Assembly: GCF_028368995.1 (NCBI RefSeq)
Contig: NZ_JAQNDL010000001.1
Span: 2,176,001 to 2,240,000 of the forward strand
Direction of reading: 5' to 3'
From: Nannocystis bainbridge
GTDB taxonomy: Bacteria > Myxococcota_A > Polyangia > Nannocystales > Nannocystaceae
DNA: 64,000 bases
Positions 43,431 through 60,712 of the stretch are shown piece after piece (positions within the stretch are counted from its first letter, which is position 1; each line of letters begins with the position of its first letter). Under the pieces are notes generated by a model. That model did not search any database. It was not told the origin of the DNA and was given only the letters and a program-made list of their open reading frames with translations. The position numbers were made by a program, and so were the translations under genes.

Positions 43431-44834
43431 CTACACGGCCTTGGGCGGCGCCTGCAGCAGGGCCTCGACGACCCGCTCGAGCCGCATGCCGCGGCTGCCC
43501 TTGACCAGGAGGGCGCCCGGTCGCTCGGCGAAGGTGGCGCGGACGGCCGCGACGAGGTCGGAGACGCCGAGCCCGGCGTGCCATGACGCGATCCCGCCGG
43601 CCTTGGCCGCGTCGGCGGCCGCCTGCGACAGCGTGCCGAAGGTGAACAGCGCGTCGAGCCCCAGCGCCGCCGCCAGCCGGCCGACCTCCGCGTGCAGCTC
43701 CGGCCCGCGCTCGCCCAGCTCGAGCATGTCGCCGATGACCGCGGCCAGCGGACCCGGCCGTGACGGGCGCAGCGCGGCCAGGCTCTGCAGCGCCGCCGTG
43801 ACCGACCCGGGGTTGGCGTTGTAGTTGTCGGCGATCAGCAGGTGATGCTCGTCGAAGCGCAGCACCCGGCCGCGGTCGCCGACCGGCAGCACCCCTTCGA
43901 GCGCCTCGATCATCGGCCCGACCGGGCAGTTCAGGTGCAGCCCGACGGCCAGGGCCGCCGCCGCGTTGCGGGCGTTGTGGGCCCCGAACACCCGCAGGCT
44001 GAGGCGGATCTCCTCGACCTCGCCGCCGGGCAGGTGCAGCCGCAAGGTCGCGTGGGTGCGCTCGTCGAGCTCGACCCCGACGATCCGCACCGACGCCTCC
44101 GGACCTTCCCCGAAGGGCAGGATCGAAAGGCCAGGTGGGAAGTGCGGCGGCAGCAGCCGCTCGTCGTCGGGCACCACCGCGACCCCGCCGGGTCGGACGT
44201 GGCGCAGCGGCTCGGCCTCGGCGGCGGCGATCGCCTCGAGGCTGCCCATGAACTCGAGGTGCTCGAGCGCGACGCTGGTGATCACGGCGACGTCGGGGCG
44301 CACCAGCGCGGCCAGCCGCTCGTTCTCGCCGGGCGCGCTCATCCCCAGCTCGAGCACGATCGCCTCCGGGTGGTCCGGCCCGTTGAGCAGCGACAGCGGC
44401 ACCCCGAGGTGATTGTTGAGGTTGCCGCGGGTCGCCAGCACGCGCCCGTGGCGGCTGCGCAGCACCGCCTCGATCAGCGCGCGCGTGGTCGTCTTGCCGT
44501 TGCTGCCGGAGATCGCCACCACCGGCCCGCTGCAGGCCTCGCGGACCGCCCCGCCGAGCGCTGTCAGGGCCGCGAACGTGTCCTCGACCTCGACCACCGT
44601 GACCGTCGGATCGTCCGGCAGCGGACGCCCCGGCGCCTGCAGGATCGCCGCGGCGCCGGCCCGGATCGCGTCGGGGATGAACGCGTGGCCGTCGCGGGCG
44701 GCCACGATCGGCACGAACAGGCCGCCCGGCACGGGGTCGCGGCTGTCGACGAAGGCGCCGCGGATCTCCCGCGAACCGGCGCGGAGCAGCCGTCCGCCGG
44801 AGGTCGCGGCCAGGGTCTCGGGGGTGAAGTGCAC
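43431..44834 (-). CDS. murF: UDP-N-acetylmuramoyl-tripeptide--D-Ala-D-Ala ligase
   Basis: AISGSNGKTTT, GNLNNHLGVP, ELGMS, DNYNANP, GDMLELG, KGSRGM. Confidence 0.95.
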   Translation of the reverse strand: MHFTPETLAATSGGRLLRAGSREIRGAFVDSRDPVPGGLFVPIVAARDGHAFIPDAIRAGAAAILQAPGRPLPDDPTVTVVEVEDTFAALTALGGAVREACSGPVVAISGSNGKTTTRALIEAVLRSRHGRVLATRGNLNNHLGVPLSLLNGPDHPEAIVLELGMSAPGENERLAALVRPDVAVITSVALEHLEFMGSLEAIAAAEAEPLRHVRPGGVAVVPDDERLLPPHFPPGLSILPFGEGPEASVRIVGVELDERTHATLRLHLPGGEVEEIRLSLRVFGAHNARNAAAALAVGLHLNCPVGPMIEALEGVLPVGDRGRVLRFDEHHLLIADNYNANPGSVTAALQSLAALRPSRPGPLAAVIGDMLELGERGPELHAEVGRLAAALGLDALFTFGTLSQAAADAAKAGGIASWHAGLGVSDLVAAVRATFAERPGALLVKGSRGMRLERVVEALLQAPPKAV

Positions 44835-45026
44835 GAGGAGACCGTTAGCACCCCGACGCGGCCGCGCGCCACTCTTCGGCAGGGCCCGCCGCGGCGGCTG
44901 CGCAGCGGGTCGGCGGTGCAGCGCGGACACGGGGTGCCCGGGGGCCCGGGGACCGCGACGGGGCGAGCGTCCCCCGGTCGTTCGGCGCGGTCGCGGCGGG
45001 CGCCGACCGGCGTTTGTCCCATCACA

Positions 45027-45054
45027 TGTCTTACGGGACATGTCCGATCGGACC
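45027..45054. repeat. Two in-phase 14-bp palindromes in the murF/HNH divergent region
   Basis: TGTCTTACGGGACA|TGTCCGATCGGACC. Confidence 0.8.
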
Positions 45055-45214
45055 TGTGATTGCGCGGCCCGGCGTTCGGCGGCCCCGCGCGCGGGCCCGG
45101 CTCGCGTTCGCCCGCGCCGATGCTCGCGCGTCGGCGCGCGCCTGCGTCGCAGCCGTCACGCGGGCGTGGCCGCGTCGACGCCGGGTCATGCTAGCCTCGT
45201 GGATGGGGAGCCTC

Positions 45215-45727
45215 ATGCACACGCTGGTCCTCGATCCCGGCTTCTTGCCGGTCAAGGTCATCTCCTGGCGGCGTGCCCTGTGCCTGAGCTTCCTCGCCAA
45301 GGTCGAGGTCCTCGCCAGCTACGAGCGCGAGGTCCGGACCGTCGACCGCGGCTTCCCCACCCCCTCGGTCGTCCGCCTGCTGCACGCCGCGCGTCCGGGC
45401 CCGCAGGTGGTCCGGTTCTCGCGCCGCAACGTGTACCTGCGCGACAACCATCGCTGTCAGTACTGCGGCGTGCAGTACAGCGACCACGAGCTGACCCTCG
45501 ACCACGTGGTCCCGCGCGTCGACGGCGGCAAGACCACCTGGACCAATGTCGTCGCCGCCTGCGCCGCCTGCAACCGGCGCAAGGGCGGCCGCACCCCCGA
45601 GCAGGCCGGCCTGCCGCTGCGCACCCGCCCGGCCCGGCCGAAGTGGACGCCGATGACCCTCGCCCAGCGGCTGCCGCTGCACGACGTGCCCGAGGCCTGG
45701 CGCGCCTGGCTCGGCGTCAAATATTAA
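45215..45727 (+). CDS. HNH endonuclease family protein
   Basis: FSRRNVYLRD..CQYCG..LTLDHVVPR..GG..W.NVVAAC..CN..K. Confidence 0.93.
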   Translation: MHTLVLDPGFLPVKVISWRRALCLSFLAKVEVLASYEREVRTVDRGFPTPSVVRLLHAARPGPQVVRFSRRNVYLRDNHRCQYCGVQYSDHELTLDHVVPRVDGGKTTWTNVVAACAACNRRKGGRTPEQAGLPLRTRPARPKWTPMTLAQRLPLHDVPEAWRAWLGVKY

Positions 45728-45730
45728 AGG

Positions 45731-45948
45731 TGTCCCGAGGGACAGGTCGCACCGGCCGGGCCCGGCGAACGCGGCGGCCGTCTCGGCGCAGGCCCGCCGC
45801 GCCTGCGCGCGGACCATTCACCGCATCCTGTCCCGAAGGCCAGGTCGCCGGCCGGGCCCGGCGAACGCGGTGCCCTCTCGGCGCAGGCCCGCCGCGCCCG
45901 CGTGCGCCGGGGCCATCCTCCACATCCTGTCCCGAAGGCCAGGTCGCT
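45731..45948. repeat. Tandem repeat of about 98 bp (2 copies plus a partial third), each starting with the 14-bp palindrome
   Basis: TGTCCCGAGGGACA 45731; TGTCCCGAAGGCCA 45829 and 45928. Confidence 0.85.
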
Positions 45949-45954
45949 CTTGTC

Positions 45955-47124
45955 TCACCCGGGGATCGTCGTCATGCACTCGGTGAGCGGCCCGGCGAGG
46001 CCGCTCCAGCCGTTGTAGCCGTTGTCCAGGCCGAGCACGGGCCCGACGATGAGCGGCTGCGAATCGGTGAAGTCGTCGAGGTCGACCTGCATCAGCTCGG
46101 CGCCGGTCTGGACGTCGCCCGAGCTGAGGATGTAGAGGCGCGGCTGCTGGTCGTCGAACAGCGGCCCTCCGAGCGCGTGGATCCCCCACGTCCCGTCGGT
46201 CTGGGCCAGCTGCGTCCCCGTGCCGGTCGTGTAGTCGATCTGCCACAGGTTGCTCGAGTCCATGGCGAACCCGAGGCTGTCGCTGACCTCGCCCTCGACG
46301 ATGCCCGGCGACATGTCGTCGATGTCGGCCACCGACGCGTTGCCGAGGTCGGTGATCACCTCGAACGTCAGGTCGCCGTCGAGGTACGCGCCGGTGAAGC
46401 GGAGCAGGCGGTTGCCCTCGGTGTTGCCCACGTCCTCGCCGGTGTCCATGAGGTAGACCCGGCCGTCGCAGTCGGTGTAGAGCGCCTCGATGCGGATCGG
46501 CTGGGCCTGGCCGTCGTTCGGCACCGTGCCCAGCAGCGTCGCCTGGGCCGGCGTATCCTCGGTGGTCGGCGGCGCGGCGATGTGGAAGATCTGGGTCCCC
46601 TCGGCCGACTCGCGCGAGCCGATCAGTGAGCCGTCCTCGAGCATCGTCAGCCCGTTCTGGCCGTGGATCAGCGGCGCGTCGGCGACCAGCTCGTTGTGCA
46701 CGAGCGCGACGACCGAGCCGTCGGACGGATCGATCTCGATGTACATCAGGTGATTTTCGACCGAGTACCACAGGTTCGGCGAGTCCCACAGCGGGTTGCC
46801 GCCGGTCGTCTCGGTGGTCGTCGCGTCGGTCGTCGTCGTCGTCGCGTCGGTCGTCGAGGTCGTCGTCGACGTCGTCGTCGCGTCGGTCGTCGGCAGCGCC
46901 TCGGTGGTCGCGTCGGTCGTGGTCGTGCTCGGATCGCTGGTGCCGAGCGTGGTGTCGGTCGCGCTCGTCGTCTCGCTGCCGCCGGTCGTCGGGTCGGTGT
47001 CGACGGTCGTCAGCGTCGTCGCCGTCGAGGCGTCCGAGTCGACCGCGGTGTCGGTCGAGCCCGGTTCGCTCGGGGTGCAGGCGACGAGGAGAGACAGGAG
47101 CGCGGCGCGGGCGGCATAATTCAT
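45955..47124 (-). CDS. Thr-rich-linker lipoprotein with probable beta-propeller domain
   Basis: LVAC lipobox; long Thr/Asp tract; beta-strand-rich C-terminal domain. Confidence 0.8.
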   Translation of the reverse strand: MNYAARAALLSLLVACTPSEPGSTDTAVDSDASTATTLTTVDTDPTTGGSETTSATDTTLGTSDPSTTTTDATTEALPTTDATTTSTTTSTTDATTTTTDATTTETTGGNPLWDSPNLWYSVENHLMYIEIDPSDGSVVALVHNELVADAPLIHGQNGLTMLEDGSLIGSRESAEGTQIFHIAAPPTTEDTPAQATLLGTVPNDGQAQPIRIEALYTDCDGRVYLMDTGEDVGNTEGNRLLRFTGAYLDGDLTFEVITDLGNASVADIDDMSPGIVEGEVSDSLGFAMDSSNLWQIDYTTGTGTQLAQTDGTWGIHALGGPLFDDQQPRLYILSSGDVQTGAELMQVDLDDFTDSQPLIVGPVLGLDNGYNGWSGLAGPLTECMTTIPG

Positions 47125-47439
47125 GGGCAAGACGATCACCTCGTTCGAGACGGCGGTCGCCCAGTGTCGCGGCCTCGGCCCGGCTTGTCCAGGCAGGCGC
47201 GTGTCGGCCACGCGCGCAGGTATTCGCACCGCGCTCCGGCGCTCGCCGATGCGCGCGATGAACCCGCCGGGGCTCGCAATTGCGACCCGTCACCCGTCGC
47301 GTCGCAAGACGCGAAGCCCGCGCCGCGGCGCGCCGCCGATCGCTCGTCGCTCGCGGCGCGCGAGCTCGTCGTCGCGACGCGAAGGCGCGGCTCATACGTG
47401 ATCGCGTCGAGCGACCGAGCTCGTCGGTGCATCTGTGCA

Positions 47440-47481
47440 TGGTCGAAACGACATGTCCAAAAGCACATGTACAAAAAATCA
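47440..47481. repeat. Phased array (3 units) with A-tract spacers
   Basis: TGGTCGAAACGACA|TGTCCAAAAGCACA|TGTACAAAAAATCA. Confidence 0.75.
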
Positions 47482-47678
47482 TGCCGATCGCGTCCCTCAG
47501 CCGCTCGCCGACGGCCAGCTCCTGGACGACGGACGTCGCACCGGGGGGCATCCGACCGCTCCTTCGATCACGAACGCCGCGACCCTCTCGCCAGAGCGCC
47601 GCGCTCGTGCGAATCGATCGCGCGGACTCGCACGAAACGCGCCCCAGGCCGGCTTGCGACGTGCGCTGGCTCAACTTT

Positions 47679-47697
47679 GACAGTGAAAATCAATTTC
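47679..47697 (+). promoter_or_regulatory. Fur box upstream of the methyltransferase
   Basis: GACAGTGAAAATCAATTTC, 14/19 match to GATAATGATAATCATTATC, in an AT-rich island. Confidence 0.7.
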
Positions 47698-47714
47698 ACT
47701 ATTAACTCCGCCCC

Positions 47715-48560
47715 ATGACGAACAAGCAAACGGTCGCCCTCGGCGACGTCAGCGAGACGCTCATGATCCCGCTGTGGTGCCGCGCGATCGAGACTGGCCG
47801 GCGCCGGCCGATCCTCCGCGACCCGCGGGCCCAGGAGATCGTCGCGCAGCTGGACTACGACTTCGAGCGGCGGTTCGCCTCGCAGCGCGACCTGGCCTTT
47901 CGCGCATGTCTGCGCACCGTCATGATCGATCGCTGGGTGCAGGAGTTCTTGCGCATGCACCCGGGCGGCACCGTGGTCGAGATCGGCACCGGGCTCAACA
48001 CTCGCTTCGAGCGGGTCGACAACGGCGCCATGCGGTGGTTCGACGTCGACCTGCCCGACTCGCTGGCGCTGCGGCGGCGGTTCTTCAGCGACACCGCGCG
48101 GCGGCGCATGCTGCCCGGCGCGTTCGGCGACGACGACTGGCTGGCCCAGCTCGGCTCCGCCGGCGACGGCCCGTTCCTGTTCATCGCCGAGGCGGTCCTC
48201 GTCTACCTGACCGAAGAGACAGTCCGTCGCGGCCTCAACGCGATCGCCTCCGCCTACCCCGGCAGCCAGTTCGTGCTCGACACCGTGACCCGGCGCGCGA
48301 TCGCCAGCCAGTCGCGGCCGATGATGCAGACCTACAACGCGCCGTTCGTGTGGGGCTGCGACGATCCGCGCACGATCGAGGCCTGGGGTCGCCACCGCTG
48401 CCTCGACTCGATCACCATGCTCGACCTGCCGCCCGAGCTGCGCCGCCGCGTCCCGCTCAAGCACCGCCTCGCCTTCTCGTACCTGCGCGCGCGCAAGCCC
48501 GAGGTGCTGCGCTCGCACGCGCTGCACCGCTTCGAGCTGCGCCCGCCCGCGTCCGCGTGA
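47715..48560 (+). CDS. Class I SAM-dependent methyltransferase, leucine-carboxyl-methyltransferase/TcmP-like
   Basis: VSETLMIPLWCRA, VVEIGTGLNTRFERVD, WFDVDLPD, FIAEAVLVYL. Confidence 0.88.
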   Translation: MTNKQTVALGDVSETLMIPLWCRAIETGRRRPILRDPRAQEIVAQLDYDFERRFASQRDLAFRACLRTVMIDRWVQEFLRMHPGGTVVEIGTGLNTRFERVDNGAMRWFDVDLPDSLALRRRFFSDTARRRMLPGAFGDDDWLAQLGSAGDGPFLFIAEAVLVYLTEETVRRGLNAIASAYPGSQFVLDTVTRRAIASQSRPMMQTYNAPFVWGCDDPRTIEAWGRHRCLDSITMLDLPPELRRRVPLKHRLAFSYLRARKPEVLRSHALHRFELRPPASA

Positions 48561-48751
48561 GCGCGCTCGCGTGACCTCGCCGGCGCAGCGAGCCGCGCCA
48601 AGATCTGCGCGCGGCGCCTGCGAATCATCCGGACGCTGCGAAGGCGCCGCGACGTCGCGCGTGCGGCGTCGCGAAGTGCACCTCGTCTCATCGACGCGGC
48701 GCGTGCGTCGCCGTGGCTCGCGCTCTGCCGCATGCGCGCTCTGCTGGCGAG

Positions 48752-49011
48752 CTCACGCGGCGGCTCGTGCGTCCCTCTCGCGCCATTCCCCTGGCGCGCG
48801 AGCATCCCCGCGGCTCGCGTTCGGCCTCACGCGCAGCGGCTGCGCGTCCCGTTCACGCCTTCTCCTGACGCCCGAGCATCCCCGCGGCTCGCGTTCGGCC
48901 TCACGCGCGGCAACTCGTGCGTCCGGCTCACGCCATCCTCCTGCCGCGCGAGCATCCCCGCAGCTCGCGTTCGGCCTCACCCGCGGCGGCTCGCTGTCCC
49001 GCTCACGCCAT
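48752..49011. repeat. Tandem repeat of about 75 bp, 3-3.5 copies
   Basis: CGAGCATCCCCGC(G/A)GCTCGCGTTCGGCCTCAC at 48799, 48873 and 48949. Confidence 0.85.
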
Positions 49012-49242
49012 GCACGTGGCGCTCGTCGCTCGCAGCTTCTGGACCCCACGCGCGTGGCCGTGACACCCGTGACATCTCACCGACGTCGTCGTCTCGGGTT
49101 GCGAGCAGCCTCGCGAATGCGCCTCCGACGTCGAGGCCGTCGGCGCGAACGAGTTCACGGCCGTGTCACGATTCTGAATGTCAAAATCCACATGAAGTGG
49201 CGCAAATAGCCTGAGAATTCTCTCCCCGAGCCCGGCACGTTT

Positions 49243-49261
49243 AATTTTGAAAATCATTATC
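49243..49261 (+). promoter_or_regulatory. Fur box upstream of the siderophore operon
   Basis: AATTTTGAAAATCATTATC, 15/19 match to the Fur consensus. Confidence 0.8.
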
Positions 49262-49283
49262 GCTTAACAATACCTTCCGCCGT

Positions 49284-50120
49284 ATGCGAACCAGCTTGCG
49301 ACGACCCCTCGTTGTCCTGTTCTCGGCGGCGTGCGTGCTCGCGTGTGGCACCACCGGGTCGGCGACGGACGCGACCTCCGACGGAGGCGTGACCACCACG
49401 ACCGGCGCGAGCACGGCCGCGAGCACCGACGCGAGCACCGGGACCACGACCGCCGAGCCGACCACCGGCGGCACCACCGATCCCGCCGAGGCCCAGTGTC
49501 AGGCCGACCTGCAGGACTGCCCCGACGAGTTCAAGTGCGTGCTGCGGCGCGGCGCCGCCGACTGGGAGTTCGTGTGCTTGCCGGTCCAGGGCGACAACGC
49601 GGCCGGCGACGCCTGTCATCACGACGGCGTGGTCGCCGGCACCGACGACTGCGACGAGACCTCGTGGTGCATCGGCGCCTTCGACACCACCGGCGCGCCG
49701 TGGGAGGGCCTGTGTTACCCGCTGTGCGTCGGCGACGTGTGCGGCAACGACCAGCGCTGCGTCGGCATCGGCGCGCTCCCGGTGTGCGCGCCGATCTGCG
49801 ACCCGCTGCTGGCCGTCGGCTGCACCGCCGACGAGGCCTGCATCTTCCGCGAGCCCGAGGGCTTCGTATGCTTCCCGCAGGGCACCGACGGCCACGCGAT
49901 CGGCGAGGACTGCGAGACCGCGATCAGCTGCGCGCCGGGCCTGCACTGCTCGCAGCGGGTCGCCGGCTGCCCGCCCGAGGCGTTCTGCTGCACCGACTAC
50001 TGCGACACCGGCAGCGCCGACAACACCTGCACCGCCCAGGGCATGGGCGCCACCTGCGAGACGATCGGCGCCACCGCGCCCGAGCAGGCCCACGTCGGCG
50101 CGTGCGTGATCCCGGAGTGA
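49284..50120 (+). CDS. Cys-rich lipoprotein, first gene of the siderophore operon
   Basis: VLAC lipobox; Thr linker; more than 20 Cys (CDPL, CAPGLHC, CCTDYCD); 3 bp from the next gene. Confidence 0.85.
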   Translation: MRTSLRRPLVVLFSAACVLACGTTGSATDATSDGGVTTTTGASTAASTDASTGTTTAEPTTGGTTDPAEAQCQADLQDCPDEFKCVLRRGAADWEFVCLPVQGDNAAGDACHHDGVVAGTDDCDETSWCIGAFDTTGAPWEGLCYPLCVGDVCGNDQRCVGIGALPVCAPICDPLLAVGCTADEACIFREPEGFVCFPQGTDGHAIGEDCETAISCAPGLHCSQRVAGCPPEAFCCTDYCDTGSADNTCTAQGMGATCETIGATAPEQAHVGACVIPE

Positions 50121-50123
50121 GCC

Positions 50124-52829
50124 ATGACCGCGCGCGCACCCACGACCCTCGGTGAACCCGACGACCTCGTGCTCGAGCCGTCCGCCCGGGCCCTGCTCAG
50201 CGCCCTCGTGCGCGAGCTCGACGGCTGGACGAGCGAGCGCGCGCCCGGCCGCGAGTGGCTGCGCCTGGCCATGCCGGTCCAGGGCGGCGCGATCGAGGTC
50301 CCGCTGGCGCGGCCGTTCGGCGTCGGCCGGATCGCCGGCGGTCAGGCCCGCTGGCGCGACGCCGCCGGCGCCAGCGAGCCGCTGCCGCTCGCCCGCCTGG
50401 TCGCCCGCCTGGTCGAAGAGCCAGCCGTCGCCGCCGCGCTCGGCCTGTCCTCCGGGCCAGGTCTCGATCGCTTCGTCGCCCGCGTGCGCGCCAGCGCGGC
50501 CAACCTCGAGGCCACCGTCAGCGCGCGCGCGGCCGACCTCGACGTCCTGTTCAGCGAGCCGCTCGGCTTCATCGCCGCCGAGCAGGGCCTGCTGCTCGGC
50601 CACTCGGTCCACCCGGCCCCGCGCCTGCGCGAGGGGCTCGGCGACGGCGACGACGACCTCGTGCCCGAGCTGCGCGGGCGCACGCCGCTGTGCGTGTGGG
50701 CGGTCCGGCGCGAGCGGCTGCTCCACGGCGGCGACGAGGCACCATCCCTGCTGGCGCGCCTGGTCGCCAGCGACCCGGCGTGGGCGGCCCAGGCCGACAC
50801 CGTCGGGCCCGAGTTCGTGCTGCTGCCGCTGCACCCGCTGCAGCACCGCGCGCTGCTCGACGATCCCTCGCTCGAAGCCGGTCGCCGGCGCGGCGAGCTC
50901 GTCCCGCTCGGTCCGCTCGGCGGCGCGTGGTCGGTGACCTCGTCGCTGCGCACGCTGCACCGCGACGGCGCGCCGTTCATGCTCAAGCAGTCGCTGCCGG
51001 TGCGGCTCACCAACTCGCGCCGGACCCTGTCGCTGGCCGAGCTCGACCGCGGCCTGCTGCTCGGGCGCGTGCTCGGCGACACCGACGCCCCGCTGCCGCT
51101 TCACCCCGACTTCCACATCCTGCGCGAGCCGGCGTGGTTCGGCCTGCGCGACGATCAGAATCAACCTGGCCCTTCGGTCAGCTTCTTCGCCCTGCGCGAC
51201 AACCCGTTCCGCGAAGGCCAACCGGCCGAGATGCTGGCGACCCTGCTGCAGGACGATCCCCGCAGCGGCCGCAGCCGCCTCGCCGTCCGCCTCGAGCGGG
51301 CCGCCGCGCGCCTCGGCGTGCGCCCGATCGCCCTCGCCGAGGCGTGGTTCGTCCGCTTCCTCGCCGTCGCGTTCGCGCCGATCGTCGCCGCCCAGGCCGA
51401 GCTCGGCCTACTGCTCAGCGCCCACCAGCAGAACCTGGTGATCGGCTTCGCCGACGACGGCCTCACCCCGGCGCGCGCGTGGTTCCGCGACGCCCAGGGC
51501 ACCGCGTACACCGAGCTCGCGCTGCGCCGCCACGGCGAGCGCGTGCCCGGGCTCGAGCGGGCGGTGTTCCGCGCGCCGCTGGCCGAGCGCGTGTGGGCCT
51601 ACTCCGTCGTCATCAACGGCGTGTTCAACACCGTCGCCTCGCTGGCGATGATCCCCGGCCTCGACCAGGGCCTGCTGCTCGAGCACCTGCGCGCTTGCCT
51701 GCAGGGGCTGCGCGCCGCGGCGCCCGCCGACCCGCGCGCGATCGACTACCTGCTGCGCTCGCCCGAGCTGTGGACCAAGGCCAATGCGCGCTGCTTCGCC
51801 GGCGGCGTCGACGAGGTCTCGCTCGCCGACCCGCTCACGATCTACCGCCCGATCGCAAACCCGCTGCACCGCGCGCCCGTCGACTCGCCCGCGCCGACCT
51901 CCGGCCGCGCCGCCGATCTCGACGGCGACGTCCAGGTCGAGCTCACCCAGCTCGCGCCGTCGCGGTTCACCGGCCACGTCGACGGCGCCCGGCCCTTCAC
52001 GCTCGACCTCGCCGACGATCACGCGACGATCGCGTGGGAACAGTTCGACCCACGCGCGCGCGACCTGGTGAGCGACCGCCTGTTCACCGGCCGCCTCGGC
52101 CTGCGCCACCTCGCGCATGTCCACGCGGAAGGGCGGGAGATCGTCGCCCGCGAGGCGTTTTATCAGCGCCCGCTGTGGCACCACCGCGGCGAATCACTGC
52201 CGGCGACCACGCCGCTCGTGCAGACCGGCGCGATCGTCCATCCCCTGCGCCAGGACGACGGCGAGTCCCTGCTCTACCGCCGCCACTGCGCCGCCATCGA
52301 TCGCACCTTCAGCCTGCGGCGCTTCGATCTGTCGCGCGACCTCGACCTGTTCTGCGCCTGGATGAACGACCCGGTGGTCGCGAAATTCTGGGAGCAGGCC
52401 TGGCCGCGCGCGCAGCTGCTCGACTACATCGAGCAGCGGCAGGCCGACCCGCACACGATCCCCGCGATCGGCTGGTTCGACGAGCGGCCGGTCGCCTACT
52501 ACGAGATCTACTGGGCCAAGGAGGACCGCCTCGGCCCGCACTACGCGGCCGACGACTTCGACCGCGGGTTCCACATGGCGATCGGCGACCCCGAGGTGCG
52601 TCACCGCGGCTGGGGTCGGCAGTGGTTCCTCTCGATGGCGCACTACCTGTTCCTCGACGACCCGCGGACGCAGCGGCTGGTCGGCGAGCCGCGCGTCGAT
52701 CAGGCCCGCGTGCGCAACTGGGCCAACTCCACCCCGTGGGAGGAGTGGGGCGAGGTCCACTTCCCGCACAAGACCGCCGTGCTGATGGTGCTCTCCCGCG
52801 AGCGCTTCTTCGCCACCTTCGAGGGCTGA
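50124..52829 (+). CDS. iucA: IucA/IucC-family NIS synthetase fused to a C-terminal IucB/AlcB-type N-acyltransferase
   Basis: EQGLLLGHSVHP, LHPLQ, TSSLRT, LTNSRR, AHQQN, FRDAQG; then WMNDP.V..FW, EIYWAKED, DRGFH, LDDPRT..VGEP, FPHK. Confidence 0.9.
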   Translation: MTARAPTTLGEPDDLVLEPSARALLSALVRELDGWTSERAPGREWLRLAMPVQGGAIEVPLARPFGVGRIAGGQARWRDAAGASEPLPLARLVARLVEEPAVAAALGLSSGPGLDRFVARVRASAANLEATVSARAADLDVLFSEPLGFIAAEQGLLLGHSVHPAPRLREGLGDGDDDLVPELRGRTPLCVWAVRRERLLHGGDEAPSLLARLVASDPAWAAQADTVGPEFVLLPLHPLQHRALLDDPSLEAGRRRGELVPLGPLGGAWSVTSSLRTLHRDGAPFMLKQSLPVRLTNSRRTLSLAELDRGLLLGRVLGDTDAPLPLHPDFHILREPAWFGLRDDQNQPGPSVSFFALRDNPFREGQPAEMLATLLQDDPRSGRSRLAVRLERAAARLGVRPIALAEAWFVRFLAVAFAPIVAAQAELGLLLSAHQQNLVIGFADDGLTPARAWFRDAQGTAYTELALRRHGERVPGLERAVFRAPLAERVWAYSVVINGVFNTVASLAMIPGLDQGLLLEHLRACLQGLRAAAPADPRAIDYLLRSPELWTKANARCFAGGVDEVSLADPLTIYRPIANPLHRAPVDSPAPTSGRAADLDGDVQVELTQLAPSRFTGHVDGARPFTLDLADDHATIAWEQFDPRARDLVSDRLFTGRLGLRHLAHVHAEGREIVAREAFYQRPLWHHRGESLPATTPLVQTGAIVHPLRQDDGESLLYRRHCAAIDRTFSLRRFDLSRDLDLFCAWMNDPVVAKFWEQAWPRAQLLDYIEQRQADPHTIPAIGWFDERPVAYYEIYWAKEDRLGPHYAADDFDRGFHMAIGDPEVRHRGWGRQWFLSMAHYLFLDDPRTQRLVGEPRVDQARVRNWANSTPWEEWGEVHFPHKTAVLMVLSRERFFATFEG

Positions 52830-52833
52830 CGAC

Positions 52834-54600
52834 GTGAACCCCGGCGAGACCTCCGAGTGGCAGGACCACGCCCGCCTGGCCGGCCGGCGCCGGCTGGCGC
52901 AGGCGATCGGCGAGCTCAGCTTCGAGGGGCTGCTGCACCCGCGTCCGCTCGGCGACGACCGCTGGGCGCTCGATCTGTCCGATGGGACATGTTATTCGTT
53001 CACAGGGCGGCCGAGCGCGTGGGGCGGGCTGCACGTCGAGGCCGACGGCATCACCCGCCGCGAAGGCGACGGCGACGAGCAACCGGCCGCCTCGCCGGTG
53101 CAGCTGATCCTCGACGCCCGGGCCGCGCTCGGGGTCGGCGCCGACGCGCTGGCCGAGTTCCTCGAGGAGCTCCACAACAGCCTGCTGGCCGAGACGGAGC
53201 AGTGCGCGCGCCTGGCCGAGCTGCGCGCGCCGCAGCTGGCCGCGCTGTCGGGCGCCGCGCTCGAGCAGCACCTCGACGGCCACCCCAAGCTGGTGGCGCA
53301 CCGCGGCCGCGTCGGCTGGGGCGTCGCCGATCTCGCAGCCTACGCGCCCGAGTCCGCCAGCCGCGTGCAGCTGCACTGGCTCGTCGTCGCGCCCGAGCTG
53401 GCCCGCTGCAGCGGCGCCGCCGGTCCGGGCCAGCTGCAGTTGGTCGACGAGAGCTGCGACGCCGAGGCCCGGGCCCGCCTGCTCGAGCAGCTGCACGCGC
53501 GCGCCCCCGGGCTCGCGCGCGGCGGCGTGCTGGTGCCGGTGCACCCGTGGCAATGGCAGCACCACCTGGCCGCCCAGTATATCGACGCGCTGACGCGCGG
53601 CGCGATCGTCTCGCTCGGCCGCTTCGGCGACGCCTACGCGCCGCGCCTCTCGATCCGCACCCTCGCCGACGCTTCGCGACCCGAGCGCGCCGACGTCAAG
53701 CTGGCGCTGACGATCCTCAACACCTCGTGCTGGCGCGGCCTGCCCGGCGAGCACATCGAGCAGGGCGTCGGCATCGGCGCGGCGCTGCGGCGGCGCGTCG
53801 CCGGCGATCCTCTGCTGCACGGCGTGCACGTGCTCGCCGACCTCGGCGGCGTGCACGTGCCGCAGCCCGAGTTCGAGGCCCTCGGCGCCGCGCCCTACCG
53901 CCTGCGCGAGCAGCTGGGGGCGCTGTGGCGCGAGAGCGCGACGGCTCGCCTCGGCGCCGACGAGCGCGAGGTCGCGGCCGCGGCGCTGCAGCAGACCGAC
54001 CTCCGCGGCGAGCCGCTGCTGCGCACATGGGTCGAGCAGAGCGGCGCCTCGATCACGGCGTGGTTGACCGCGCTGTTCGAGCGCACCGCGGCGCCGCTCT
54101 ATCACTTGCTGTGCCGCCACGGCATCGGCGTGATCGCCCACGGGCAGAACCTCGGGCTGGTGCTGCGCGCGGGAATGCCGACGGCGATCCTGCTGCGCGA
54201 CGTGCACGGCGACGTGCGCCGGGTGGCCGACGACCGCTTCGATCACGAGCCGGCGCTGCGCGGGCTCAAGGCGCTGCCGGCCGGCCAGATCGTGCACGAC
54301 CTCTACACCGGCTATTTCGTCAGCGTGCTGCGGTTCGTCGCGCCGCTGTGCGAGCGCAGCTTCGGCCTGCCGGAGCGCGAGTTCCTGCGGCTGCTGTCCG
54401 CGGTGCTCGCCGCCTACTGTGATTCGGTGCCGCACGAGGCGACGGCGCGCTTCGATCTGTTCCGTCCGGAGATGGAGCGGATCTGCCTCAACCGCGCCCG
54501 TCTGCGGATCGGCCACGGCGGCGGCGCCACGCGCCCGCTGCCCGCGCTCGGTCCGCCGCTGCATAACCCGTTGGTGAGGGAGGTGGACGATGAACGATGA
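52834..54600 (+). CDS. iucC: IucA/IucC-family NIS synthetase (IucC-like)
   Basis: GHPKLVAHRGRVGW, VHPWQW, SIRT, LNTS, HGQN. Confidence 0.9.
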   Translation: MNPGETSEWQDHARLAGRRRLAQAIGELSFEGLLHPRPLGDDRWALDLSDGTCYSFTGRPSAWGGLHVEADGITRREGDGDEQPAASPVQLILDARAALGVGADALAEFLEELHNSLLAETEQCARLAELRAPQLAALSGAALEQHLDGHPKLVAHRGRVGWGVADLAAYAPESASRVQLHWLVVAPELARCSGAAGPGQLQLVDESCDAEARARLLEQLHARAPGLARGGVLVPVHPWQWQHHLAAQYIDALTRGAIVSLGRFGDAYAPRLSIRTLADASRPERADVKLALTILNTSCWRGLPGEHIEQGVGIGAALRRRVAGDPLLHGVHVLADLGGVHVPQPEFEALGAAPYRLREQLGALWRESATARLGADEREVAAAALQQTDLRGEPLLRTWVEQSGASITAWLTALFERTAAPLYHLLCRHGIGVIAHGQNLGLVLRAGMPTAILLRDVHGDVRRVADDRFDHEPALRGLKALPAGQIVHDLYTGYFVSVLRFVAPLCERSFGLPEREFLRLLSAVLAAYCDSVPHEATARFDLFRPEMERICLNRARLRIGHGGGATRPLPALGPPLHNPLVREVDDER

Positions 54601-55882
54601 GATCGATCTCGCAGGCGTGGGCGTCGGGCCCTTCAACCTCAGCATCGCGGCGCTCGCCGACGAGCTGCCCGAGCTGCGAGCCCGCTTCTTCGAGAAGCGC
54701 GAGCGGTTCGCCTGGCACCCGGGCCTGTTGTTCCGCGGCTCGCGGATGCAAACTTCTTTCTTGAAGGACCTGGTGACGGCGGTCAGCCCGACCAGCGCGC
54801 ACTCCTTCATCAACTACCTGGTCCAGCACGGCCGCTTCCACGCGTTCCTGGCCGCAGACAGCTCGGCGATCGAGCGGCTCGAGTTCGCGGACTACCTCGG
54901 CTGGGTGGCGAGCCGGCTGTCGTCGCTGCGCTTCGGCGTCGAGGTCCGCGACGTCGTGCCGGTGCCCGGCGGCTTCGAGCTGCGCCACGACCACGACCGC
55001 ACGCGCACGCGTCACGTGGTCCTCGGGACAGGTCGCGTCCCCGCCATCCCCGAGTGCGCGCGGGCCCACCTCGGGCCGCGCTGCTTCCACGCGATCGACA
55101 TCCTCGCGCGCCCGCTCGAGCTGCGCGGGGCCCGGGTCGCCGTGGTCGGCGGCGGCCAGACCGGCGCCGAGGTGGTGCTCGAGCTGCTGCGCGGCAGCTG
55201 GGGCGAGATCGCCGAGCTGAGCTGGGTCTCGCGCCGCCTCAACTTCGAGCCGCTCGACGAGAGCCCGTTCACCAACCACCTGTTCACGCCCGGCTTCGTC
55301 GCCGCTTTCCACGAGCTCGACCGCCCGCGCCGGCAGTCGCTGCTGGCCCGCCACAAGCTGGCCGGCGACGGCATCTCGCTGTCGACCCTGCGCGAGCTGC
55401 ACGACCGCGTCTACCAGCTCACCGCCCTGCGCGCCGGCCCGCGGGTCGAGCTGCTGCCGGGCCGCGAGCTGGAGTCGCTGAGCCCGCGCGGGTCCGGCTT
55501 CGAGCTGCACACCCGCAACAACCTCGACGGCGAGCACGAGGAGGTCGCCGCCGACACGGTGATCCTCTGCACCGGTCTGCGCGAGCACCTGCCGCCGTGC
55601 ATCGAGTCGCTGCTGCCCGCGCTCGAGCGCGACGAGCACGGCGGCCTGCAGGTCGACGCCAACTTCGTGCTGCGCCGCCAGGCCGCCGGCGACGGCCGGC
55701 TCTACATCGTCAACGGCGGCCGCTCGACCCACGGGATCGCCGAGTCGCAGCTCAGCCTGATGGCCTGGCGCTCCGCCGTGATCCTCAACGACGTGCTCGG
55801 CCGGCGCCGCTTCGCCGTCGAGCAGGAGCGCGAGCTGGTGCGCTGGCGCGCCCGCCCGCGCGCGGACGCGAGGTCGCGATGA
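54590..55882 (+). CDS. iucD: L-lysine N6-monooxygenase (IucD/PvdA family)
   Basis: GVGVGPFNLS, WHPGL, MQTSFLKDLV, VVGGGQTGAE, ILCTG, LSLMAWRS. Confidence 0.92.
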   Translation: MNDEIDLAGVGVGPFNLSIAALADELPELRARFFEKRERFAWHPGLLFRGSRMQTSFLKDLVTAVSPTSAHSFINYLVQHGRFHAFLAADSSAIERLEFADYLGWVASRLSSLRFGVEVRDVVPVPGGFELRHDHDRTRTRHVVLGTGRVPAIPECARAHLGPRCFHAIDILARPLELRGARVAVVGGGQTGAEVVLELLRGSWGEIAELSWVSRRLNFEPLDESPFTNHLFTPGFVAAFHELDRPRRQSLLARHKLAGDGISLSTLRELHDRVYQLTALRAGPRVELLPGRELESLSPRGSGFELHTRNNLDGEHEEVAADTVILCTGLREHLPPCIESLLPALERDEHGGLQVDANFVLRRQAAGDGRLYIVNGGRSTHGIAESQLSLMAWRSAVILNDVLGRRRFAVEQERELVRWRARPRADARSR

Positions 55883-57729
55883 GCGAAGCTCCGCACGAGC
55901 CGGGCGCCCTCGAGGTCGCGGGCGAGGCCCTGCGCGAGCCGGGCTCCCGCGGACTCGCGGGCGAGGCCTCGCGCGAGCCGGGCTCGATCGAGGCGGTCGA
56001 ACTCCCCCGCGAACCCGACGCTCTCGAATTCACAGCAGGCGACGCGCCCCCGCGGGGCGCCCCCGCGCCGAACCTGCCCGACGCCCCGCGCAAGCTGGGC
56101 GCGCGCGCGCAGTTCGGCCTGGTCGTGTTCGCCGGCCTCGGCGCCGTCCTGCTCACCTGGGCGCTCGCGCGCTTCTGGCCCGACTCCCCGGCCGAGCGCG
56201 CCACCGTCGCCAGCGTCGCCTTCATCCCGATCTGGACCCTGCTCGCCCTCGCCCTGCTCGCCTGGCGGCGCCGCGCCCCTGCGGGCTCCGGTCGGCGGCG
56301 CCTGTTCGCCGTCCACCGCGGCCTCGGCGGCGCGCTCGCGCTCGCGGGCGTGCTGACCTTCGGCTCGGGCGTCGGCGCCGTGCTCGACCGCGCCCTCGCG
56401 CGCTGGCAGGTCGTGCACGCGGCCGCGAGCGACGTCCCGCCGGTCCACGAGCAGCCGATCGACGGCGTCCTGGCCGGCCTGCTGGAGGCCCAGCCGGCCC
56501 TGGTCCGCGGCGAAATCTCGATCCACCCCGCCGGCCCCGAGCACCCGTGGATCGAGGTCGTCTACTTCGGCCCCACGCGCGTCCCGGTCCGCGTCGATTT
56601 CGACCCCCGCAGCGGCGCCCCGATCGCCGAGGGACGCGGCCCGCTGTGGGTCGTGCGCGACCTGCACCGCCAGCTCCTGACCCAACCCTTGCTCGGCGAG
56701 ACCGTGCTCGGCCTGCTCGGGTTCGCCCTCGCGCTGATCCTCTGCACCGGCCTGGCCACCCGCCGCGACTGGCTGCGCAACCTGGTCCGCCGGCGCCGCC
56801 CGGCCCAGCCGCTGGCGATGCGCATGCACCAGTGGGTCGGCTTCTTCACCCTGCCCGCCGCGCTGCTGTGGGCCTGGACCGGCGCCCTGCTCGGCCTGAC
56901 CCTGATCGTCGTCCCGATCGTCGGCGGCGCAGCCTATGGCGGCGACCGGGCCGCCTTGATGCGCGACGTGCTCGCCAGCGATCGCCCGCCGCTGGTCGAC
57001 GCCCCGGCCCCGCGGCCCGACCTCCAGCGCTTGCTCGCGGCCCGCTGCCCCCTGATCGACGCCCACCTCCCCGAGGCCGAGGTCCACCAGCTGCGCGTGC
57101 GTCACCCCGGTCTCGCCAGCGGCACCGTGCGCATCGATCTCGAGGGCGACGGCCTGCTGCAGCGCGGCTCCTTCACCCGCGACGCTGACGGCGGCCTGCG
57201 GGACTGTCGCGCCCTGCCGGCGGCCGGCCCCGGCCTGCAGGCCTTCCTCGCCTCGATCGCGCTGCACTACGGCGAGTGGGGCCCCGGGTGGCTGGTCGAC
57301 CTCGCCTACGTCCTGCTCGGCGCCGGCCTCGTGGCCCTGTCGTGGCTCGGCGGGCTCCTGCTGGCCCGCCGGCGCGAGAAGGGCGGCGAGGCCCGCTCCG
57401 CCGAGCGCCTGCGTCGCTGGCTCGCCGGCCTCGGCTACGGCCTGCCGCTGGCCACCGGCGCCCTGCTGCTGCTGTCGCGCGTCCCGGCGCTGGCGCGGGC
57501 CGAGGACGTGGCGCTGCGCGTGTTCCTGGCGGTGCTCGTGCTGGCGCTGCTGCTCGCGCGGATCTTCGCCCGCGCCCCCGCGCTGCTGCACACCGCCCTC
57601 GTGGCCCTGCTCGCCGCCGTCCCGCTCGTCGGCTGGATCGCCGCCGGCGTGGTCCCGGGCGCGGTCGAAGCGGTGCTGGTGATCCTCGCCGCGGCCCTCG
57701 TCGGCCTGCACCGCCGCCGTCCCGCCTGA
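55879..57729 (+). CDS. PepSY-associated TM-helix (iron-uptake/ferrisiderophore reductase-type) membrane protein
   Basis: LFAVHRGLG, DLHRQL, MHQWVGFFTLP, ALHYGEWG; many TM helices; ATGA overlap with iucD. Confidence 0.8.
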   Translation: MSEAPHEPGALEVAGEALREPGSRGLAGEASREPGSIEAVELPREPDALEFTAGDAPPRGAPAPNLPDAPRKLGARAQFGLVVFAGLGAVLLTWALARFWPDSPAERATVASVAFIPIWTLLALALLAWRRRAPAGSGRRRLFAVHRGLGGALALAGVLTFGSGVGAVLDRALARWQVVHAAASDVPPVHEQPIDGVLAGLLEAQPALVRGEISIHPAGPEHPWIEVVYFGPTRVPVRVDFDPRSGAPIAEGRGPLWVVRDLHRQLLTQPLLGETVLGLLGFALALILCTGLATRRDWLRNLVRRRRPAQPLAMRMHQWVGFFTLPAALLWAWTGALLGLTLIVVPIVGGAAYGGDRAALMRDVLASDRPPLVDAPAPRPDLQRLLAARCPLIDAHLPEAEVHQLRVRHPGLASGTVRIDLEGDGLLQRGSFTRDADGGLRDCRALPAAGPGLQAFLASIALHYGEWGPGWLVDLAYVLLGAGLVALSWLGGLLLARRREKGGEARSAERLRRWLAGLGYGLPLATGALLLLSRVPALARAEDVALRVFLAVLVLALLLARIFARAPALLHTALVALLAAVPLVGWIAAGVVPGAVEAVLVILAAALVGLHRRRPA

Positions 57730-57870
57730 GCGCCGGCGCCGAAATCCATCGCTCACGCCTCGACATCGGCCGTGAGCGCTGGCGATCGCCGTCCCGTCTG
57801 AGCGCCGGCGGCGAAATCCATCGCTGCACGCCTCGACATCGACGCCCGCGAGCGCTGGCGATCGCCGCGG
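57727..57870. repeat. Two-copy direct repeat of about 70 bp after the siderophore operon
   Basis: TGAGCGCCGGCG.CGAAATCCATCGCT..CACGCCTCGACATCG at about 57727 and 57798. Confidence 0.7.
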
Positions 57871-58029
57871 CTCTCCGACCCGCGCGCACAGCCCTCTGCG
57901 GGCCGACGTGGACCGACGCGCACGCGCGGCCACCCACCCTGATTCCCCGCGCGGCCCGGGCGCCGCCTGGCGGCGCGTTCGGCGAATAGTTGCGCCATCG
58001 GGGCCATGCATGGCAAGCCGGCTTGCGAC

Positions 58030-59154
<1,125 letters not shown>

Positions 59155-59161
59155 GCCCCAC

Positions 59162-60712
59162 GTGACCGCCGACCACACGTCCCCCTCCGACCCCGCCGAC
59201 GCGAGAGCCCCCTCCGCGTCGGCGGCCGCCGTTTCGCCCCCGACGTCCGCGAGCGGCCTCGACCCGACCGCTTCGACCCCAGCGATCCGAAGCGCCGCGG
59301 GCTCGCCGGGTGACCCCGATCCGTCCGCCTCGTCGGCCCCGCCCGAACTCGATTTCGCCCGCACCACCGCCCTCGTCATCGGCGCCGGCGCCAGCGGCCG
59401 GGCCGCCGCCGAGCTGCTGGTGTTCCTCGGCGCTCGCGTCCGCCTCTACGACCAGAACCCTGACGCCACCGTGCCCGCCGGCGTCGAGCCGGTCCTCGGC
59501 GCCGCCGAATTGCCCGCCGAGGCCTTCGCCGGGCTCGGCCTCATGATCCTGAGCCCCGGCGTCCCGCCCGCCCGCTTCCGCGACGCCCAGCGACGCTGGG
59601 CCCCGCAGGCCCGGGTCCACGGCGAGATGAGCCTGAGCCTGGCGATCGCCGCGGCCCGCTTCGGCCGCCTGCCGACCGTCCTCATCACCGGCACCAACGG
59701 CAAGAGCACCGTCACCGCCCTCACCGGCGCCCTGCTCGAGGCCGGCGGCCTGAAGCCGTTCGTCGGCGGCAACCTCGGCGTCCCGCTGGCCGCCGCCCTG
59801 CTGGGCCTCCTGCGCGCCCGCGCCCCCGCGCCCGACGCCCTCGTGCTCGAGTGCTCGAGCTTCCAGCTCGAGACCCTCGAGCACGCCGCCACCGACGTGG
59901 CGATGGTCCTCAACATCACCCCCGACCACCTCGACCGCTACCCCGGCCTCGACGACTACGCCGCCACCAAGGCGCGCGTGTTCACCGGCCTGGGCCCGGA
60001 CGGCCTGGCCCTGCTCGACGCCGGCGACGGCTTCACGTCGTTCCTGCGCGCCCGCGTCGGCGCCGGCCGGCTCGTGCTCGTCGACGACCCCGACGGCGCG
60101 CGCCTCCTCGGACCTGGCCCCGGGGACAGCCTCGTCCTCCCGGACGGCGAGACCTTCGCCCGCCGGGCCCTGCCGATCCCCGGCCGCCACAACAGCAAGA
60201 ACGCCCTGTTCGCCCTGCTCGCCGCCCGCCGGCTCGGCGTCGACCACGACGCCTGCGTGCGCGGCCTGGAGGGCTTCCACGGCCTGCCGCACCGCATGAC
60301 CTTCGTCCGCGAGCGCGCCGGCGTCCGCTTCTACGACGACTCCAAGGCGACCAACGTCGCCAGCGTGCTCGCCAGCCTCGACGGCTTCGACCGCCCGGTC
60401 GTCCTCATCGCCGGCGGCCGGGCCAAGGGCGACGATCTCACGCCCCTGCGCGCCCTGCTGGGCCGCAGCGGCCGCGCCCTGGTCGCCATCGGCGAGTCGG
60501 CCGACGCCTTTTACCCCCTCGCCGACGGCCTCGTGCCGGCGCGCCGGGCGAACTCCATGGCCGAGGCCGTCGAGCTCGCGGCCGCGCTCGCCGGCCCGGG
60601 CGACGCCGTGGTCCTCTCGCCGGCGTGTGCCAGCTACGACTGGTTCAAGAATTACGGCGAACGCGGCGACACCTTCGCCCGCCTGGTGCGGGCGCTGCCT
60701 GCGGAGAAGTGA
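59162..60712 (+). CDS. murD: UDP-N-acetylmuramoyl-L-alanine--D-glutamate ligase
   Basis: SPGVP, ITGTNGKSTVT, ECSSFQLE, DHLDRY, DDSKATN, LSPACASYD. Confidence 0.96.
   Translation: MTADHTSPSDPADARAPSASAAAVSPPTSASGLDPTASTPAIRSAAGSPGDPDPSASSAPPELDFARTTALVIGAGASGRAAAELLVFLGARVRLYDQNPDATVPAGVEPVLGAAELPAEAFAGLGLMILSPGVPPARFRDAQRRWAPQARVHGEMSLSLAIAAARFGRLPTVLITGTNGKSTVTALTGALLEAGGLKPFVGGNLGVPLAAALLGLLRARAPAPDALVLECSSFQLETLEHAATDVAMVLNITPDHLDRYPGLDDYAATKARVFTGLGPDGLALLDAGDGFTSFLRARVGAGRLVLVDDPDGARLLGPGPGDSLVLPDGETFARRALPIPGRHNSKNALFALLAARRLGVDHDACVRGLEGFHGLPHRMTFVRERAGVRFYDDSKATNVASVLASLDGFDRPVVLIAGGRAKGDDLTPLRALLGRSGRALVAIGESADAFYPLADGLVPARRANSMAEAVELAAALAGPGDAVVLSPACASYDWFKNYGERGDTFARLVRALPAEK

Follow-up and report, generated by a model that had tools for sequence, protein, structure and literature searches.

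A 64,000-nucleotide stretch of the Nannocystis bainbridge genome (NCBI RefSeq assembly GCF_028368995.1, contig NZ_JAQNDL010000001.1, forward-strand positions 2,176,001 to 2,240,000; hereafter the window) carries an aerobactin-type operon for NRPS-independent siderophore (NIS; NRPS, nonribosomal peptide synthetase) synthesis and, ahead of it, a separate methyltransferase gene. Here, we describe this six-gene module and its relatives in the Nannocystaceae and put it forward as a candidate biosynthetic locus for nannochelin-type siderophores.

Reading frames were chosen by third-position GC content (the window is about 72% G+C) and then checked with Pfam. The open reading frames (ORFs) of the module had third-position GC contents of 0.93 to 0.97. 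The features, in window positions, are as follows.

47679..47703, putative Fur-like box 1, with the core palindrome TGAAAATCAATTTCA at 47684-47698
47715..48560, plus strand, methyltransferase, 281 amino acids (PF04072 LCM; score 54.3 bits, cut-off 22.3)
48756..49011, 76-nt tandem repeat in 3.4 copies, in the spacer between the methyltransferase gene and the operon (Tandem Repeats Finder)
49170..49188, putative Fur-like box 2a (13/19 matches to the Fur 19-mer)
49243..49262, putative Fur-like box 2b, with the core TGAAAATCATTATCG at 49248-49262 (15/19 matches to the Fur 19-mer)
49284..50120, plus strand, cysteine-rich lipoprotein, 278 amino acids, first gene of the operon (signal peptide, lipobox cysteine)
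50124..52829, plus strand, IucA::IucB fusion protein, 901 amino acids (Pfam IucA_IucC, FhuF and Acetyltransf_8)
52834..54600, plus strand, IucC-like type C NIS synthetase, 588 amino acids (Pfam IucA_IucC and FhuF)
54590..55882, plus strand, IucD-like flavin N-monooxygenase, 430 amino acids (Pfam Lys_Orn_oxgnase, 342 bits)
55879..57729, plus strand, PepSY_TM membrane protein, 616 amino acids (PF03929, 90.2 bits against a cut-off of 28.8)

The five genes from the lipoprotein to the PepSY_TM protein form an operon with next to no intergenic space. A first-pass annotation, made from the sequence letters, had named all six genes, and both third-position GC and Pfam place them where it had put them. 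The spacer between the methyltransferase gene and the operon measures 723 nt in the window. Third-position GC gave no coding frame in it, and a coding role for its tandem repeats was considered and dropped for want of that signal. An Rfam scan of 45000-58500 gave no match at an E value of ≤0.1. Two further tandem repeats were seen, one of 39 nt (2.6 copies, 55883-55985) inside the variable N-terminus of the PepSY_TM protein and one of 72 nt (2.1 copies, 57715-57867) directly after its gene.

The operon enzymes were compared by BLASTP with a reference aerobactin operon from Escherichia coli (NZ_CP074703.1, locus L012). Four enzymes matched IucA, IucB, IucC and IucD one-to-one (31 to 41.5% identity) and in the order iucABCD, with IucA and IucB fused, which bears out the IucABCD-type set read at first pass. 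In the fusion protein, an IucA-like type A NIS synthetase occupies residues ~1-585 and an IucB-like acyltransferase residues ~670-900. The N-terminal part was 31% identical to E. coli IucA (1e-56) and 26% identical to IucC, and residues 17-581 had IucA (5jm7, 8.5e-54) as their top PDB match. The C-terminal part shared 37% identity with E. coli IucB over 227 amino acids (1e-44, 152 bits), scored 158 bits against Acetyltransf_8 (PF13523), and matched SidF (7qf6, 131 bits) and MbtK (81 bits) in the PDB, an enoyl-CoA user and a lysine N-acyltransferase, respectively. The second synthetase was 38% identical to E. coli IucC (3e-119) and also had IucC (6cn7, 6e-109) as its top PDB match. Fusions of the same three-domain architecture (IucA::GNAT) and similar length (~900 amino acids) are found in marine Gammaproteobacteria (Vibrio maritimus, Paraneptunicella, Agarivorans and Ferrimonas), with only 29 to 33% identity to ours; the Nannocystaceae fusion proteins form a separate group (49 to 100% identity).

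The monooxygenase matched E. coli IucD over its full length (41.5% identity over 424 amino acids, 345 bits, 6e-120). Diamine and ornithine hydroxylases in the PDB scored 114 to 205 bits, and the best of them, 6xbb (205 bits), presumably a diamine hydroxylase, stayed below E. coli IucD. Cadaverine or putrescine was considered as the hydroxylase substrate and judged less likely, since E. coli IucD scores much higher and there is no decarboxylase in the conserved module. From this ranking and the lack of a decarboxylase in the module, we infer that the enzyme is a lysine N6-hydroxylase. With no decarboxylase in the module, lysine should keep its carboxyl groups, which would then be available as targets; taken with the pairing to IucA, IucB, IucC and IucD, this leads to a predicted scaffold of a citrate bis-amide of N6-acyl-N6-hydroxylysine with two free lysine carboxylates.

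For regulation, the 64-kb window was scanned with a 19-mer (the classic E. coli Fur consensus) at a threshold of at least 13/19 matches. Only four positions reached it, namely, 47679 (14), 47685 (13), 49170 (13) and 49243 (15), whereas 100 first-order Markov simulations gave a mean of 0.09 and a maximum of 1. No site in the window lay within three mismatches of the E. coli 19-mer, and the boxes are therefore called Fur-like, not canonical. The local palindrome TGAAAATCATTTTCA occurred at ≤3 mismatches only at 47684 and 49248 in the window (0.05 expected); it was derived from the same data, so the 19-mer scan is the fairer test. Box 1 (14/19 and 13/19 matches to the 19-mer, one mismatch to the palindrome) lies 17 nt before the methyltransferase start codon, and box 2b lies about 22 nt before that of the lipoprotein. 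Among the related loci described below, a Fur-like box ahead of the methyltransferase gene was kept in 5/5 Nannocystis loci, the box 2a position matched the 19-mer at 14 to 15 of 19 positions in five Nannocystis loci, and the palindrome (≤4 mismatches) stood directly before the lipoprotein gene in 10/10 loci having upstream DNA. We thus count three putative Fur-like boxes, one before the methyltransferase gene and two before the lipoprotein gene. The first reading was right that both transcription units are boxed; it had counted two boxes, where the 19-mer scan finds three. A sigma-70 pattern scan of 47300-49400 found no promoter, and two terminator-like matches, both on the minus strand, were at chance level.

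As expected of an LCM superfamily protein, the methyltransferase scores above the PF04072 cut-off, and its predicted structure shows the class I fold and the helical lid at the N-terminus. An AlphaFold model built from 61 homologues (pLDDT 92.2, pTM 0.91) was searched with Foldseek; the best matches were Rv0731c, PPM1, LCMT1, ML2640c and TYW4 (TMq 0.65 to 0.70), and all of the first 21 ranks were LCM-fold proteins. By name, we take PPM1 and LCMT1 to be leucine carboxyl methyltransferases. Rv0731c (6id6; E value 8.3e-12, TMq 0.70) and ML2640c (2uyo/2uyq; TMq 0.68 to 2uyo) were best or near-best, at 18 to 21% identity in the structural alignments, and seem to have the S-adenosylmethionine (SAM)-binding and E...Y motifs in common with our protein. 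Its SAM-site residues E89, G91, G93, D112 and E159 were invariant in the 61 homologues and align to the LCMT1 motifs 'vNlGaGmDT' and 'AEcVLvY'. The E159/Y164 spacing (5) equals that of ML2640c E189/Y194, with Y164 within the HMMER-aligned range, and the T15/R23 spacing (8) equals that of ML2640c T20/R28, a match by spacing alone. E159 and R23 were invariant among the homologues, and T15 and Y164 were conserved in at least 90% of them. PMC10193983 shows that ML2640c and Rv0731c form esters of small-molecule carboxylic acids and that the carboxylate is held by Thr20 and Tyr194. Thr20 and Tyr/Phe194 of ML2640c serve as landmarks of OPCMT-like carboxyl methyltransferases.

In single-sequence searches against the PDB, the methyltransferase gave only marginal matches to LCMT1 (E values of 0.19 to 0.38), and a mycobacterial relative (P0073) gave no match; the profile-search alignments covered the best five matches, among which were neither ML2640c nor Rv0731c. 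Named relatives with at least 60% identity all belong to the Nannocystaceae, and those at 45 to 57% have names like 'O-methyltransferase involved in polyketide biosynthesis' and 'tetracenomycin C synthesis protein'. The protein falls in a branch other than that of ML2640c and Rv0731c, one in which the named relatives at 45 to 50% identity bear these two labels. The gene is under strong purifying selection (dN/dS 0.11 to 0.14, against 0.38 to 0.48 for the IucD gene and 0.06 to 0.12 for mraY). We propose that the protein is a carboxyl O-methyltransferase.

Related loci were sought with peptide words of the fusion protein, one genome per species, and 11 loci were recovered, all from Nannocystaceae. 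Fusion protein identity was 87 to 88% in Nannocystis punicea, N. exedens DSM 71, N. pusilla Na p29 and Nannocystis sp. RBIL2, 80% in N. radixulma, and 58 to 61% in four Enhygromyxa, Nannocystaceae ST9 and one metagenome-assembled genome (L011). When 14 window proteins were searched against these loci (tblastn), the order lipoprotein-fusion-IucC-IucD-PepSY_TM was unchanged wherever the locus DNA reaches, and the PepSY_TM gene came last in the operon in 10/10 loci reaching that far. The methyltransferase gene adjoins the operon in nine of the 10 loci with upstream sequence (L007, with 89 nt upstream, was left out), across at least three genera. It is codirectional with the operon in Nannocystis and ST9, at a distance of 336 to 724 nt in Nannocystis. 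In three Enhygromyxa loci, it is inverted, with 117 to 134 nt between it and the operon, and a gene for a major facilitator superfamily (MFS) transporter comes after it on the strand that it occupies; no counterpart of this transporter gene was found in the window or the Nannocystis loci. These transporter genes, in locus positions, are as follows.

L005, 6889-8187, MFS transporter gene, divergent from the NIS operon
L006, 6967-8304, MFS transporter gene, divergent from the NIS operon
L010, 6912-8129, MFS transporter gene, divergent from the NIS operon

The murF/mraY flanks were confined to the Nannocystis loci. Because the methyltransferase gene stays with the operon while the flanks differ, the six-gene set, and not its neighborhood, is the conserved unit. 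Softer support for this linkage comes from contig sizes: 12 of 35 methyltransferase clusters (at least 60% identity) share their exact longest-contig size with one of 36 fusion clusters (at least 49% identity), the shared contigs including ones of 5.4 and 6.4 kb and one of Paraliomyxa miuraensis.

Two of the loci call for comment. In L011, a 150-amino-acid cysteine-rich lipoprotein ORF (8575-9027) stands where the methyltransferase gene would be, and an upstream PD40/amidohydrolase gene is common to this locus and that of ST9 (L008). In N. pusilla Na p29 (L004, 10001-15743), tblastn found the fusion protein, IucC, IucD and MurF in split or frame-shifted matches, a pattern that points to indels in the assembly or to pseudogenes; the fusion protein is intact, with 902 amino acids (P0124), in a second N. 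pusilla record.

The two remaining operon genes encode accessory proteins. The lipoprotein, which constantly heads the siderophore operon (L001-L006 and L008-L011), has its signal peptide and lipobox cysteine in the window and in 10/10 orthologues, and 26 cysteines are invariant in all 11 sequences. After a hypervariable acidic or Thr/Asp-rich linker comes a cysteine-rich domain of ~210 amino acids; the protein has no Pfam or NCBIfam match. Its ESM Atlas neighbors were Myxococcota clusters without names; one carried the automatic name 'ribulose phosphate epimerase family', which was not trusted. Structure prediction from 11 orthologues was poor (pLDDT 60.4, pTM 0.44). The PepSY_TM protein has several hydrophobic segments and found no sequence match in the PDB. 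By analogy with FoxB, a siderophore reductase of this family, it is inferred to be a ferric-siderophore reductase.

Nannochelins have been known since 1992, and nannochelins A, B and C differ in their lysine methyl esters. They are citrate-hydroxamate siderophores from N. exedens (PMC10127202), and one reference describes nannochelin in its title as a 'cinnamoyl hydroxamate-containing siderophore'. Nannochelin A has been isolated from N. pusilla too, and the nannochelins are reported to be cytotoxic at nanomolar concentrations (PMC4902002). Our literature searches found no published gene assignment for these compounds. Both producing species have the module, here in the strains N. exedens DSM 71 (L002) and N. 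pusilla Na p29 (L004), which are other than the published producer strains. With the Iuc pairing and the methyltransferase linkage, this comparison supports the first-pass proposal of a locus for nannochelin-type siderophores. We consider it reasonably likely that the module is the iron-repressed biosynthetic locus for such a siderophore and that the methyltransferase esterifies the lysine carboxylates.

The pathway would run as follows. By homology, the IucD-like enzyme would hydroxylate L-lysine at N6, and the IucB-like domain would acylate the same nitrogen. The IucA-like domain to which the latter is fused would then couple the first acyl-hydroxylysine to citrate, and the IucC-like enzyme would add the second. 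The acyl donor would be cinnamoyl-CoA produced elsewhere in the genome. The methyltransferase, separately transcribed from its own Fur-like box, would methylate the alpha-carboxylate of one or both lysines with SAM as donor; these groups should not bind iron, and the mono- or dimethyl esters would be less charged. The PepSY_TM protein may reduce the returning ferric complex, and the cysteine-rich lipoprotein may have some part in siderophore handling or uptake. When iron is sufficient, Fur on the three boxes would presumably switch off both transcription units.

Several points weigh against this assignment. The nannochelin reading comes from sequence comparison. Of the proteins with which the acyltransferase domain was compared, acetyl-transferring IucB is nearest to it, and cinnamoyl is not specifically indicated. 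The methyltransferase scored 71.3 bits against TIGR00027, under the cut-off of 93.55; it is related to this OPCMT-like subfamily and is not a member. Its N-terminal threonine region was not aligned by HMMER to ML2640c or Rv0731c, which leaves the threonine landmark based on spacing. The operon of L011 has no methyltransferase gene within 9 kb upstream. The locus search used words of the fusion protein, and other NIS clusters in Nannocystis are thus possible. Enhygromyxa also has the module with its methyltransferase gene, and a single Paraliomyxa contig carries the methyltransferase and fusion genes; nannochelins are not known to have been reported from these two genera, so products may vary across the family. 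An orthologous cluster of Enhygromyxa/Plesiocystis is listed without a product in PMC6226438.

Supply of the acyl group and uptake are two further gaps. Pfam found no phenylalanine ammonia-lyase (PAL), CoA-ligase or TonB-receptor/Plug domain in 42 window ORFs (a set to which the ORFs at 23832-25013 and 25442-26368 do not belong), and among the 32 flank ORFs of six non-Nannocystis loci there was neither a gene for forming or activating cinnamate nor one for a TonB-dependent receptor. The absence of PAL, cinnamate-CoA ligase and TonB receptor reported at first pass therefore holds for the ORFs scanned, and it too counts against the assignment. The corollary drawn there, that the cinnamate genes are encoded elsewhere, needs amending with respect to PAL. 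Phenylnannolones of Nannocystis are built on a cinnamate starter unit, for which a non-PAL origin has been proposed (PMC5577590, a review), so PAL need not exist.

The main rival account keeps the operon as a siderophore locus and gives the methyltransferase another task, namely, to esterify, when iron is scarce, the carboxylates of siderophores made by competitors or of other acids, with the nannochelin esters arising as methanol artefacts or through another enzyme. Its model is Spm of Staphylococcus aureus, a TcmP-like protein (IPR016874) under Fur control and encoded next to fhuD1, beside siderophore-uptake genes, which inactivates a foreign siderophore by methyl-esterifying pyochelin (PMC10592502); this precedent, too, speaks against tailoring of the cell's own product. 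Spm is described there as being Fur-regulated, as lying beside siderophore genes, and as turning a siderophore carboxylate into a methyl ester, all of which would apply to our methyltransferase as well. It differs in that its substrate is foreign and iron binding is destroyed, whereas the proposed targets here are non-iron-binding carboxylates of the cell's own product. This account also draws on the range of different acids taken by OPCMT-like LCM-fold enzymes (PMC10193983), on the Nannocystis methyltransferase gene being a transcription unit apart from the operon, on L011, which has the operon and not the methyltransferase gene, and on the recognized concern over methyl ester artefacts, which the authors of the lusichelin study had to exclude (PMC12210259). 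Against it, linkage to this one operon is kept in the nine loci through inversion and change of flanks. In Enhygromyxa, moreover, a single spacer with a Fur-like box serves both the methyltransferase gene and the operon, and the MFS gene comes after the methyltransferase gene; in E. coli an MFS gene likewise stands beside iucA. The expected product would have two free non-chelating carboxylates, and the known compounds are methyl esters at those very positions. Because the methyltransferase gene stays with the operon through inversion and change of neighborhood, we hold tailoring of the own product to be the likelier role and the turning of the enzyme on foreign siderophores to be an unlikely one, if worth keeping in view.

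Alternatively, the module could make another citrate-bis(N6-acyl-N6-hydroxylysine) siderophore, either acetylated and aerobactin-like or with fatty or enoyl groups and ochrobactin-like, and nannochelin could come from a different locus. The closeness of the acyltransferase domain to IucB among the proteins compared fits this, as do the lack of cinnamate genes nearby in the window ORFs scanned and the common occurrence of the module in marine Enhygromyxa. The single reported siderophore biosynthetic gene cluster of Paraliomyxa was grouped with aerobactin and ochrobactin clusters (PMC9960870), and a second NIS cluster has been described in Enhygromyxa strains (PMC6226438). On the other hand, nannochelin has exactly the aerobactin scaffold, and so its synthesis calls for an IucABCD set; the five Nannocystis genomes each yielded one such locus; and a dedicated carboxyl-type methyltransferase fits nannochelin, not aerobactin or the ochrobactins. 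The genus also makes cinnamate for phenylnannolones (PMC5577590). We rate this alternative as improbable.

That the methyltransferase acts on another siderophore atom (such as the central citrate carboxylate or a hydroxamate oxygen), for inactivation, storage or self-protection, is very improbable, for all that the LCM family assignment is silent on regiochemistry: methylating the iron-binding group of one's own siderophore under iron starvation would be counterproductive, and we know of no nannochelin congener so methylated. Spm does inactivate pyochelin by methylating an iron ligand (PMC10592502).

Among the known systems closest to the proposed nannochelin locus is the plasmid-borne aerobactin operon iucABCD-iutA of E. 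coli and Klebsiella. The four enzyme families and their order are common to both, Fur presumably controls both, and the divergent MFS gene next to iucA in E. coli has the same placement in the Enhygromyxa module. The Nannocystis module differs in the fusion of IucA and IucB, in having no iutA-type TonB receptor among the window ORFs scanned, and in adding the cysteine-rich lipoprotein, the PepSY_TM protein and the LCM-fold methyltransferase; its product would be cinnamoylated and esterified, where aerobactin carries acetyl groups. For the esterification step, there is a parallel in LusM, an LCM-domain SAM-dependent methyltransferase of the lusichelin metallophore cluster proposed to form a terminal methyl ester, to which StnF2 and MelK are said to be similar; lusichelin congeners with and without the ester coexist (PMC12210259). 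The comparison follows the description given there, and the LusM, StnF2 and MelK pathways are of the NRPS/polyketide synthase type, whereas the Nannocystis module is NRPS-independent. The precedents of Spm and LusM make the proposed chemistry credible. They also make methyl-ester tailoring less novel than the first-pass annotation implied when it set this step against aerobactin clusters. Judging from the sequences, the locus is an aerobactin-type cluster in which IucA and IucB are fused and to which a carboxyl-type methyltransferase of its own, a PepSY_TM protein and the invariant cysteine-rich lipoprotein belong.

The genes upstream of the module are as follows.

43431-45041, minus strand, murF-like gene
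45014-45727, plus strand, HNH endonuclease ORF, between murF and the gene for a threonine-rich lipoprotein
45955-47229, minus strand, threonine-rich lipoprotein of no family

The HNH ORF may be a mobile-element trace close to the insertion point. Downstream of the module lie mraY, murD, a gene of the metallo-beta-lactamase fold and an amidase gene; MraY is 97 to 98% identical to the Nannocystis copies. The module separates murF (43431-45041) from mraY/murD (58006-60712), which are on opposite strands, and this insertion was seen in 5/5 Nannocystis loci and not in Enhygromyxa or ST9. Genes for MraW, an FtsI-like penicillin-binding protein and another Mur ligase are dispersed through the window (29410-32899 and 2366-4027). 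With its cell-wall genes dispersed in this way and the module between murF and mraY/murD, Nannocystis has no unbroken dcw cluster. Farther upstream are ergothioneine-type genes (40243-42449, minus strand; EgtD-like Methyltransf_33 and EgtB-like FGE-sulfatase/DinB_2), of which EgtB is syntenic across the Nannocystis loci, and a lysA diaminopimelate decarboxylase gene (35833-37299, plus strand), 12 kb from the module, which was treated as housekeeping.

We further entertain, as a distinctly doubtful extension, that methyl esterification is a regulated charge-masking step coupled to export and that the lipoprotein and the PepSY_TM protein form a receptor-free route of capture and uptake. The coupling to export is suggested by Enhygromyxa, where the methyltransferase gene is followed by the MFS transporter gene on the same strand. 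If true, the cinnamoyl siderophore would be hydrophobic and membrane-partitioning, uptake would proceed without a cluster-encoded TonB receptor, and this would amount to a new accessory system, confined to the Nannocystaceae, for siderophores of the NRPS-independent type.

The locus offers a concrete candidate for nannochelin biosynthesis. If its assignment is right, an aerobactin-type (NRPS-independent) pathway would, as far as our literature searches go, have a dedicated carboxyl methyltransferase linked to it for the first time, and the question whether the methyl esters of nannochelins are enzymatic or artefacts of isolation would be decided. The enzyme could also serve as a biocatalyst that esterifies the carboxylates of N-acyl amino acids. 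For the myxobacteria more widely, the module flags two conserved accessory proteins, the cysteine-rich lipoprotein and the PepSY_TM protein, that may take part in siderophore handling.

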